NCBI RefSeq assembly: GCF_056712565.1
Contig: NZ_CM160072.1
Reading direction: 5' to 3' (one strand)
Length of the DNA: 64,000 bases
Position numbers: made by a program. Of this stretch, positions 1 to 3,000 are shown piece after piece. Position 1 is the first letter of the stretch. Every line of letters starts with the position of its first letter.

Positions 1-3000
1 AGAGTATCCCAAGCTCGCGTGGACCAATATCACCATTATGGTAGCCAACAGCAAAACTGTTATCGCTAATCGTCGCAAAACTGTGAATCTCAGTAACAGG
101 AGTGCTTCCGTCAACAAAAGAAGGAATAGTTCCAAGACTGGTTTTTCTCCATGGTGACGAGTGAAATGATGTACCAAAACTCCAGTATCTACCCTCGTTA
201 TTCTGATCCACATCCTGAGTATTTTGCGTCGTAACTGTAAAAGTATTTTTATCAATAACAGTAGTCACCGTCATATTCCCGGTAACACCTGTAACACCAG
301 AGTTTGAGAAGTTGACAAAATCACCAGCAAATAATCCGTGATCAGTAATGCGAATATAAGCGACTTGCTGATTTGCTGCTTTCGTTATACCACCATAAAC
401 GCGAAGGCTGCGACTCATTGGGCGATCCCACAACTCTGCAACCTGCAGTTTATTTCCTCTCACGGTCCGCGTCTCAATTACAGCAAAAAGGCGATTTCTG
501 ACAACCCCCATACTCATGCAGTGATAGTTAACTGTGGGATAGTTTTCATGTAAATCTGTAAGCCATTCCGGCGTTGTCCAGGTCTTCCCGTCATCTCCTG
601 AGCGAACCCATGCAACATGGAGGTTATTTACACCATGGCGGTCTCCAGCCATAAAAGGCGCATAGATGACATTGTCATATACAAACGTTTTATCCTGCGT
701 CCAGGCGTTGTACCACGGTGTATCTGTAATTTTAAATAACTCTCCCTGGATAAAATCTTCAGAAGCATAAAAAAGAGGCTGGCCCGGTATTCTCTCAAAT
801 AAAAAACGAGCATTTTTAAATCGACTGACATCCGGAAGAGTTGATACTTTAAAAGTAAGCCCTAATCCGTCAATTTTATAACCTGGAGATGAGGCTTCAA
901 GGCACGCGCTTATTGCAGTGGAATCGTCATTTATACCATCACCAACAGCTCCAAAATCTTTGGGGCTAATAGCATCACGCATTTTATCCTGGAACGTTCG
1001 GTACACAGCCCCAGAACCATACTGAATAAACCAACCAAAACCACCAACAACCCCGGCGATTGCAGCATCGACATAATTACGCATTGAGCGATTATTTACA
1101 GCGTCCTGCTCAAATGATGGATCTGCAAGGTTAGAAATTTTGTTTTGCTTTGCATCGTAATATTTTGCAAGCAAAGATGGTTTCATCAATGCACGTCTGA
1201 ACCACCCAAAACATTGCTGGATCAGCATCGTCAGGTAGTCAAAGGCATCTTCATGCACTTCGGGGAAAAATTTTCCCTGATTGCGAAGGTCTGTCTCCTG
1301 CACTACATCAAGCACACGATCTATCGTAATTCGCCATCCAGTAGCAAGCGGAGACGGAAGAACCACAGAACCGCCACTATAAGTGCCCGCCCCAGTTACC
1401 GTATAACCGGTATCCAGGACCAATTCTGTTACGTTCCCGTTCAGGTCAGACACCTGAACAACCAGGTCTGATTTTCTGAAAATTCGAAAAGTATACGGAA
1501 ACGATGTCGTAACGCCGTTACCGGTGTATTCGTTGTGGTCAACTTCGGTTGAGACCGTCATGTTAAATCTCCAGATAGTCGCAGCACCCGTTGCGCCGCA
1601 TATCTGGTTATTCTATTACCTGAAAAACCACATATGGATAAAAGGACTATAAATACCAATAGATATTACCTTTCGGGTAATTTGCAAAACGTGCTGGATA
1701 GCAAACAAATTATTTGTTACTGTATAAACATACAGTTATTGCATGGAGAAGATAAGATGCAGCAGTATCACTATCCACTGGAAGACGGATTTACCGAAAG
1801 GATTCACACGCCGGGAGGCGTCAGATCACTGGTGGAGGGATCGCTCTTGATGAAATTACTCCGGGATCTCGATAAGGATGGATTTAATGTCGATGGCCCA
1901 CTTGCCGAACTGACTGCACTGATTAACTACGTCACCAGCTCACAGATGTCTATGCGGGATCTGCAAACACATCTCGACTATTGTGCCGAACAATTACGAA
2001 AACAAACCAGATAAGGTTTGCAATTACCAAATGGAGTGCTTATATTTACCTTTGCGGTAAATTTACATCGCACTCCTCTTGTGCCATAGTAATCGGGCAC
2101 TGGCAAAATCCAGTGCCGGGATTGGCGTCCCGAGTTACTACAGAGGCACATATGCCGCATAAGCGGTTTTTTTATGTGTAAAGCGCACCTATTCTATGGT
2201 GGGCTGTGTGGGGGCACCGAAAGGTGCGCCGGGTCCTTTGTAGCCGGTTACGCCAACCCTGCACAGTTCACCACCAACCGATTGGCGTCGGTAGTGGTGA
2301 TTAACCTAACTACAAAGGTGATCGCCATGAATACCAAACCTTCCATCTTTTCCTTTGAGTCATCCTGCCAGATCCGTATGTTCATGATTGACGGAGAACC
2401 TTGGTTTGTCACCAAAGATGTGTGCAATGCTTTGAATATTGATGTTACACAAGCGAGAAAACTTGATAAAAAAGGCTGGAACAAAAAGGGGCTGTATTCA
2501 ATACAGACCCCTGGTGGAATACAAGAACTATCCATCGTTTCAGAATCAGGTCTCTACATCCTTATTCTGCGTTGCAAAGAGGCAATGACTGAGGGAACGA
2601 GAGCATTCAGATTTCTTGAATGGGTTACAGGCGAAGTACTTCCTCAGATCCGCCGCACCGGAAGCTACATTAAAAACTCGCTCCCGCAGGAAGAACGCAT
2701 AAAGATGGTTGCCGACCAGGTAGCCAACGCCACGGCGTCAGCAGTAATGCAGGCGATGAAGATAGAGAACAAAACCTACAGCGCCCCACTGAAGCCCGGC
2801 TACCGCAGCCTGATTCATTCGCCGTCTGGTGTTCTCGGCCTGACGGAGAACTCACTGCTGATGAATCTGCTGAACCAGTTACAGGAAGACGGGCACGACG
2901 TATCGGGCGCGGCGGCGGAGCTGACCACCATGTTCTGCTACATCGTCGGTGTGAGCAAGTGCCTGCGTGATATCCAGACGCACGCGGAGTACATCAACGA

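Follow-up and report, generated by a model that had tools for sequence, protein, structure and literature searches.

What does a tailspike gene reveal of its phage when only half of it can be read? The question is raised by a stretch of 64,000 nucleotides from contig NZ_CM160072.1 of NCBI RefSeq assembly GCF_056712565.1 (hereafter the window), which opens inside such a gene. The sequence-only reading of this DNA had recognized a conserved N-terminal particle-binding domain, and considered that the enzymatic part of the spike was unseen and that host range could not be judged here. The comparisons described below lead to a fuller answer. We conclude with high confidence that positions 1-1561 code for the first 520 of about 1039 amino acids of a chimeric endosialidase spike, belonging to an epsilon15/phiV10-like E. 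coli prophage integrated at guaA. The protein has already been published, together with the reading of its domains, the phage and the guaA site (PMC9782041), and RefSeq names the gene endosialidase. The locus is mildly interesting for its clean modular chimera with the enzyme of prophage CUS-3 and for the frequent co-residence of both prophages.

An open frame at the edge of the window

The tailspike frame starts on the minus strand at an ATG (1561-1559), exits from the window at position 1 and comprises 520 codons without a stop. The chance of an open frame of this length, estimated as (61/64)^520, is roughly 1e-11. Retranslation revealed no stop codon in this frame over 1-1561, and the earlier statement that the gene is cut by the window edge holds. 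All 520 residues are identical to those of ORF7 (QTH80017.1, 1039 amino acids) of phage vB_EcoP_ZX5 (MW722083, Uetakevirus); since that sequence is an annotated CDS, the frame represents a real gene. At the DNA level, window positions 1-1700 are 99.5% identical to ZX5. Near-identical CDSs of 1039 amino acids are also annotated in E. coli APEC O1 and FDAARGOS_1301. The plus-strand ORFs inside 1-1561 are at most 108 amino acids long and antisense to the tailspike gene, and are read as chance ORFs. A promoter scan of positions 1562-1760 found no minus-strand promoter-like site for the spike, with overall counts near the shuffle expectation. The features of the gene and of the prophage end are listed in table 1.

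Table 1. Positions of the tailspike modules and of the integrase-side prophage end in the window.
Feature	Position	Strand	Evidence
Tailspike gene, 5' half, codons 1-520 of an expected 1039; endosialidase	1-1561	-	Open frame; identity to ZX5 ORF7
Ribosome-binding site GGAG	1569-1572	-	7-nt spacer to ATG 1561-1559; read directly in the sequence
Virion-anchor module, about aa 1-196, Uetakevirus (epsilon15/phiV10) type	974-1561	-	DNA identity, PHROG matches, Dpo31 match
Junction segment, aa 197-233, with DFGAVGDGINDD motif and start of End_N_terminal	863-973	-	Diverges from both parental types
End_N_terminal (PF12218), N-terminal extension, aa 205-271	749-949	-	Pfam 1.7e-32, profile 1-67/67, complete
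End_beta_propel (PF12217), catalytic six-bladed beta-propeller, first part, aa 272-520	2-748	-	Pfam 1e-99, profile 1-166/367
End_beta_barrel (PF12195), inserted in the propeller, aa 383-465	167-415	-	Pfam 1.2e-46, profile 1-83/83
His309 in the propeller, counterpart of endoNF His350	635-637	-	Residue count on structure alignment
Integrase ORF (integrase-sized)	33453-34703	-	Adjoins the att core
att core ATTGAGTGGGAATGATT, integrase-side prophage end, 3' end of guaA	34894-34910	-	Single exact match; 0/100 shuffles
guaA-sized ORF	34896-36473	-	3' end overlaps the att core

Anchor and enzyme in the visible protein

The conserved particle-binding module noticed from the sequence is indeed present and spans about 196 amino acids. 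In 60-nt bins over gene nucleotides 1-540, the identity to phiv142-3 and EC.W1-9 is 95-100%; it falls to 83% in the bin 541-600, after which the sequences diverge. More than 20 PHROG families of tail fibres or spikes, with profiles of 538 to 1230 positions, match the N-terminal 200 residues or so by their first 160-200 positions. Because the matches are confined to these first positions, they indicate a conserved anchor combined with interchangeable receptor modules. This feature of Uetakevirus tailspikes, a shared N-terminal anchor and an exchangeable C-terminal receptor module, is thus present here by both DNA and PHROG comparison. Residues 1-210 also match residues 1-215 of the Dpo31 chain (E 9e-37). 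Phage_T7_tail was considered as the Pfam family of the N-terminal 200 residues and rejected, the match being sub-threshold (16 bits for a cut-off of 25.2).

Beyond the anchor, the window codes for the N-terminal extension of an endosialidase, the first 45% or so of the catalytic propeller and the entire inserted beta-barrel. These features of GH58 endosialidases are all present, the six-bladed propeller with 166 of its 367 profile positions in the window, and we take the endosialidase part of the tailspike to belong to GH58. In endoNF, the endosialidase of phage K1F, the beta-barrel is a polysialic-acid-binding domain. Residues 205-519 match the K1F endoNF structures (1v0e, 3gvj/k/l) with E ~1e-147, and the phi92 endosialidase (4hiz) with E 9e-122.

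The catalytic triad of endoNF consists of Glu581, Arg596 and Arg647 (PMC2955717). It aligns to E547 (in ASEPC), R562 (TTRGT) and R613 (GSERA) of the ZX5 protein. The triad (expected at amino acids 547, 562 and 613), the stalk and the chaperone lie beyond the window edge; the equivalent of His350 is inside. Truncation of the gene by the edge and the position of the triad outside are what favour the view that the window shows only the conserved N-terminus, with the receptor-binding and enzymatic part entirely outside and the specificity unknowable. However, the anchor ends at about amino acid 196, and amino acids 205-520 (window 2-949), about 316 of the 520 visible residues or some 60%, consist of three endosialidase Pfam domains with E-values from 1.7e-32 to 1e-99; solved endosialidases match this part at ~1e-147. 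The claim that the enzymatic part is unseen is refuted by these matches, and we attach almost no probability to the view built on it. The visible tailspike is, on the alignments, a two-module chimera composed of a Uetakevirus anchor and an endosialidase enzyme.

Boundaries of the enzyme module

Sliding identity comparisons locate the change from one module to the other. The match with Uetakevirus ends near gene nucleotide 580, and near-identity with CUS-3 begins near gene nucleotide 700-720. From there on, the window (positions 1-863, about amino acid 233 onward) is 99.4% identical at the DNA level to the CUS-3 gene siaK1, with 97-100% per 60-nt bin. The annotation of CUS-3 siaK1 carries direct-assay evidence for endo-alpha-sialidase activity. 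In full-length proteins of the ZX5 type, the identity with CUS-3 EndoN is 96-100% per 50-amino-acid bin from about amino acid 251 to 1000, and goes down to 74% in the last 40 residues or so of the full-length relative.

The segment between the two modules resembles neither parent closely. Its amino acids 197-233 are only about 60% alike to CUS-3, and the DFGAVGDGINDD motif is common, in degenerate form, to the proteins of all three types (window, Uetakevirus and CUS-3). A distant blastn search of the phage collection for another parent of this junction returned only ZX5-type records as close matches. By these comparisons, the endosialidase behaves as an exchanged cassette.

The prophage and the second half of the gene

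The Uetakevirus context (attP core, integrase and 3' end of guaA) is present in the window, with the lysis cassette beyond its edge, and the gene order matches that of ZX5 and APEC O1. The core ATTGAGTGGGAATGATT has been published for ZX5, phiV10 and epsilon15, and ZX5 integrates at the 3' end of guaA (PMC9782041). The location of the att core and integrase implies that position 1 falls within a prophage of about 38.7 kb, the other end of which is expected about 3.8 kb to the left of this position. The latter estimate is the offset to APEC O1, in which the att core occupies 8219-8235, with the ATG of the spike at 13561 (coordinates of region L003). Beyond the prophage end, the ORFs in 34896-39546 have the size and order of guaA, guaB and xseA, assigned by size and position only; on account of these ORFs, the right 29 kb or so of the window is considered to be ordinary E. 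coli chromosome. A tRNA-Arg gene (anticodon TCT) is located inside the prophage at 20817-20893 (+).

In ZX5, APEC O1 and FDAARGOS_1301, the spike gene runs 519 codons further than the window edge. The ZX5 and APEC O1 proteins have a complete propeller, an End_tail_spike domain (PF12219, amino acids 722-876, Pfam 8e-78) and a Peptidase_S74 chaperone (PF13884, amino acids 877-937, Pfam 1.7e-10). Downstream of the spike in the relatives, about 300 nt lack a convincing ORF; two holin-like genes, a GH19 endolysin, a DUF2514 gene and the att core come next, and beyond this core APEC O1 has the chromosomal gene yfgI. In FDAARGOS_1301 (L002, 6773-8820), the integrase directly adjoins the lysis cassette across the att core, as in a circular phage map, which suggests tandem prophage copies or an arrangement other than that of APEC O1.

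With its second half beyond the window, the spike could be a decayed remnant, truncated or frameshifted past position 1, in a defective prophage without a working spike. This is very unlikely in view of the 520 intact codons and of a visible protein identical to that of a phage that plaques and lysogenizes (PMC9782041). Moreover, the relatives examined have full-length CDSs of 1039 amino acids, and nothing seems to be missing from the rest of the prophage as far as it lies in the window: the structural ORFs are long, and an integrase is present, as is an intact att core at guaA. We infer that the second half of the tailspike is intact in this genome as well.

The region beside the spike

According to the sequence-only reading, adjacent lysis or serotype-conversion genes would lie beyond position 1. 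The first part is borne out by the closest relatives, which have lysis genes there, whereas in ZX5, APEC O1 and FDAARGOS_1301 the interval from the spike to the att site contains no neuO-type or other serotype-conversion gene. In the window itself, no neuO homologue was detected by blastn and tblastn with the CUS-3 neuO region, and no AAGACTC heptanucleotide repeat by pattern search. For the window and these three relatives, a capsule-converting prophage of the CUS-3 type, with its neuO contingency locus, was rejected on these grounds.

The spike and the accessory block next to it (1-4650) have a GC content of 38-56% (mostly 41-49%), compared with 54-60% in the structural and ejection genes (4650-8000). 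Three ORFs of the accessory block have no Pfam match; two such ORFs, at 3819-4052 (+) and 4089-4649 (-), have N-termini that by eye are signal-peptide-like. The block also includes a BRO-N antirepressor ORF at 2174/2327-3019 (+) (Pfam Bro-N, 2.7e-13). Just upstream of it, and divergent from the tailspike gene, several Rfam families match within 2084-2278 (+): the c4-a1b1 targets at 2084-2136 (+) (44.3 bits, just under the gathering score of 46.7), the isrK Hfq-binding RNA at 2097-2173 (+) (74.2 bits) and the C4 antisense RNA at 2192-2278 (+) (79.5 bits). This segment looks like an antisense-RNA control module for the antirepressor, similar to immI of P1/P7.

Beside the tailspike start lies an ORF of 85 amino acids (1757-2014, +) that is paralogous to the last 75 residues or so of the BRO-N protein (45% identity, E 1e-16). 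It has no Pfam match and may represent the C-terminal domain of the antirepressor as a separate copy. Two similar short palindromes, TTACCTTTCGGGTAA (1666-1683) and TTTACCTTTGCGGTAAA (2046-2063), each precede one of these two plus-strand ORFs and are candidates for operators or hairpins.

Host specificity

ZX5 is a temperate phage isolated on an O87:H52:K1 host, and its ORF7 has been read as an N-terminal tail-fibre domain followed by an endosialidase and an intramolecular chaperone (PMC9782041). Taken together, the endosialidase domains, the identity to ZX5 and the match with CUS-3 make a predicted specificity for the K1 polysialic-acid capsule readable from the window. The opinion that host range could not be judged at this locus is thus set aside; at the level of prediction, the specificity of the spike can be judged. 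Enzymatic activity of the ZX5 type on the K1 capsule is likewise to be expected, given the 96-100% identity per 50-amino-acid bin to CUS-3 EndoN.

A spike of endosialidase fold might nevertheless be retargeted, for instance to K92 or to an O-acetylated variant, or be a binding-only protein, in which case the host would not be K1. Amino acids 197-233 are lineage-specific, which speaks for such a change, but the sequence from amino acid 251 to about 1000 keeps the bin-by-bin near-identity to CUS-3 EndoN just cited, the triad is conserved in the ZX5 protein, the ZX5 host is K1, and strains of types O7:K1 and O2:K1 are among the named carriers. A retargeted or binding-only spike is therefore extremely improbable.

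In a K1-directed spike, the anchor (residues 1-196) would fix the trimeric protein to the tail, and the endosialidase (amino acid 205 on) would bind and cleave the alpha-2,8-polysialic acid of the K1 capsule; this cleavage would let the virion reach the outer membrane. Endosialidases are known to bind polysialic acid as trimeric spikes through sites in the beta-barrel and stalk, and to cut alpha-2,8 linkages in the active site of the propeller. Their C-terminal chaperone is needed for folding of the trimer, after which it is removed by cleavage at a conserved serine. For annotation, the prophage can be recorded as one that would target the K1 polysialic-acid capsule, which acts as a virulence factor in neonatal-meningitis and avian-pathogenic E. 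coli. The strain itself is, very likely, a K1 (ST95-like) ExPEC.

Distribution and possible origin of the chimera

Of 5426 complete E. coli genomes, 71 contain the exact fusion junction (window 700-1150) over its full length; among the full-junction matches listed, every one is annotated as endosialidase. Carriers of window positions 1-4000 include APEC O1, IHE3034, the O7:K1 strain CE10 and an O2:K1 APEC isolate. None of the 5426 genomes has a perfect match to these 4000 positions, the best having 99% coverage and 97.8% identity. For the CUS-3-type junction, 153 genomes gave full coverage. Both spikes occur in at least 10 complete genomes (IHE3034, APEC O18, ST95-32, N1, N21, N54, CE10, AREA_486, OZ546925 and OZ546911), with one endosialidase in a Uetakevirus-type prophage at guaA and one in a CUS-3-type prophage. 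The two endosialidase spike genes of IHE3034 are about 170 kb apart.

Since at least 10 genomes carry both spikes, recombination between co-resident prophages is a plausible route for the shared cassette. A more specific scenario, which we propose only tentatively, is that the cassette (about amino acids 233-1000) moved very recently between a CUS-3 and an epsilon15-like prophage residing in one K1 chromosome. The swap would have occurred by recombination within the conserved DFGAxGDGxxDD motif where anchor and enzyme meet, or close to it, and the divergent junction segment of about 37 amino acids would indicate a third, unsampled parent. If true, this would be a natural, datable case in which podoviruses of unrelated lineages exchanged a receptor module within a single host lineage.

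Comparison with known systems

The closest known system is ZX5, which resembles the window in the surrounding gene order, the attP core and integration at guaA. It differs in the antirepressor region, where window positions 2319-2612 and about 3044-3796 have no ZX5 match, and it is a free phage genome, whereas the window contains a chromosomal prophage.

Spikes of the epsilon15/phiV10 type have the N-terminal 190 residues or so and the upstream intergenic region in common with the gene in the window, and the spike gene is likewise placed before the lysis cassette. The DNA identity over the N-terminal part and the upstream intergenic region is 98% for phiv142-3 and EC.W1-9 and, over the first 125 nt or so and the same upstream region, about 90% for phiV10; for Salmonella E15-like phages, it is about 73% in the N-terminal and upstream part. 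The C-terminal receptor modules of these spikes are, in contrast, unrelated beta-helix type depolymerases of 625-710 amino acids. The anchor has a more distant counterpart in Dpo31 (PDB 28lx, 28mg, 8ck1), the tail spike of the marine Cobetia podovirus Carin-1 (Dpo31 paper): the N-terminal beta-sandwich and the start of the helical region align, but host, catalytic domain and substrate are different.

For the enzyme, a close relative is EndoN/SiaK1 of CUS-3, a P22-like Lederbergvirus and prophage of E. coli K1 RS218, whose enzyme part is near-identical to that of the spike in the window. The CUS-3 spike starts with a head-binding N-terminus of the P22 gp9 type (MTDITANV...), unrelated to that found here, and is adjoined by the phase-variable O-acetyltransferase gene neuO, which the prophage type of the window does not have. 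K1F is a lytic T7-like phage, the spike of which has a T7 gp17-type N-terminus, and the protein in the window differs from its endoNF by a 7-residue insertion (FVDGSTP, amino acids 481-487). Yet endoNF (1v0e, 3gvj/k/l, 3ju4; GH58) has the same order of parts, N-terminal extension, propeller with inserted barrel, stalk and chaperone; it matches the full-length relative with 1047 bits, and the equivalents of His350 and of Glu581, Arg596 and Arg647 are conserved.
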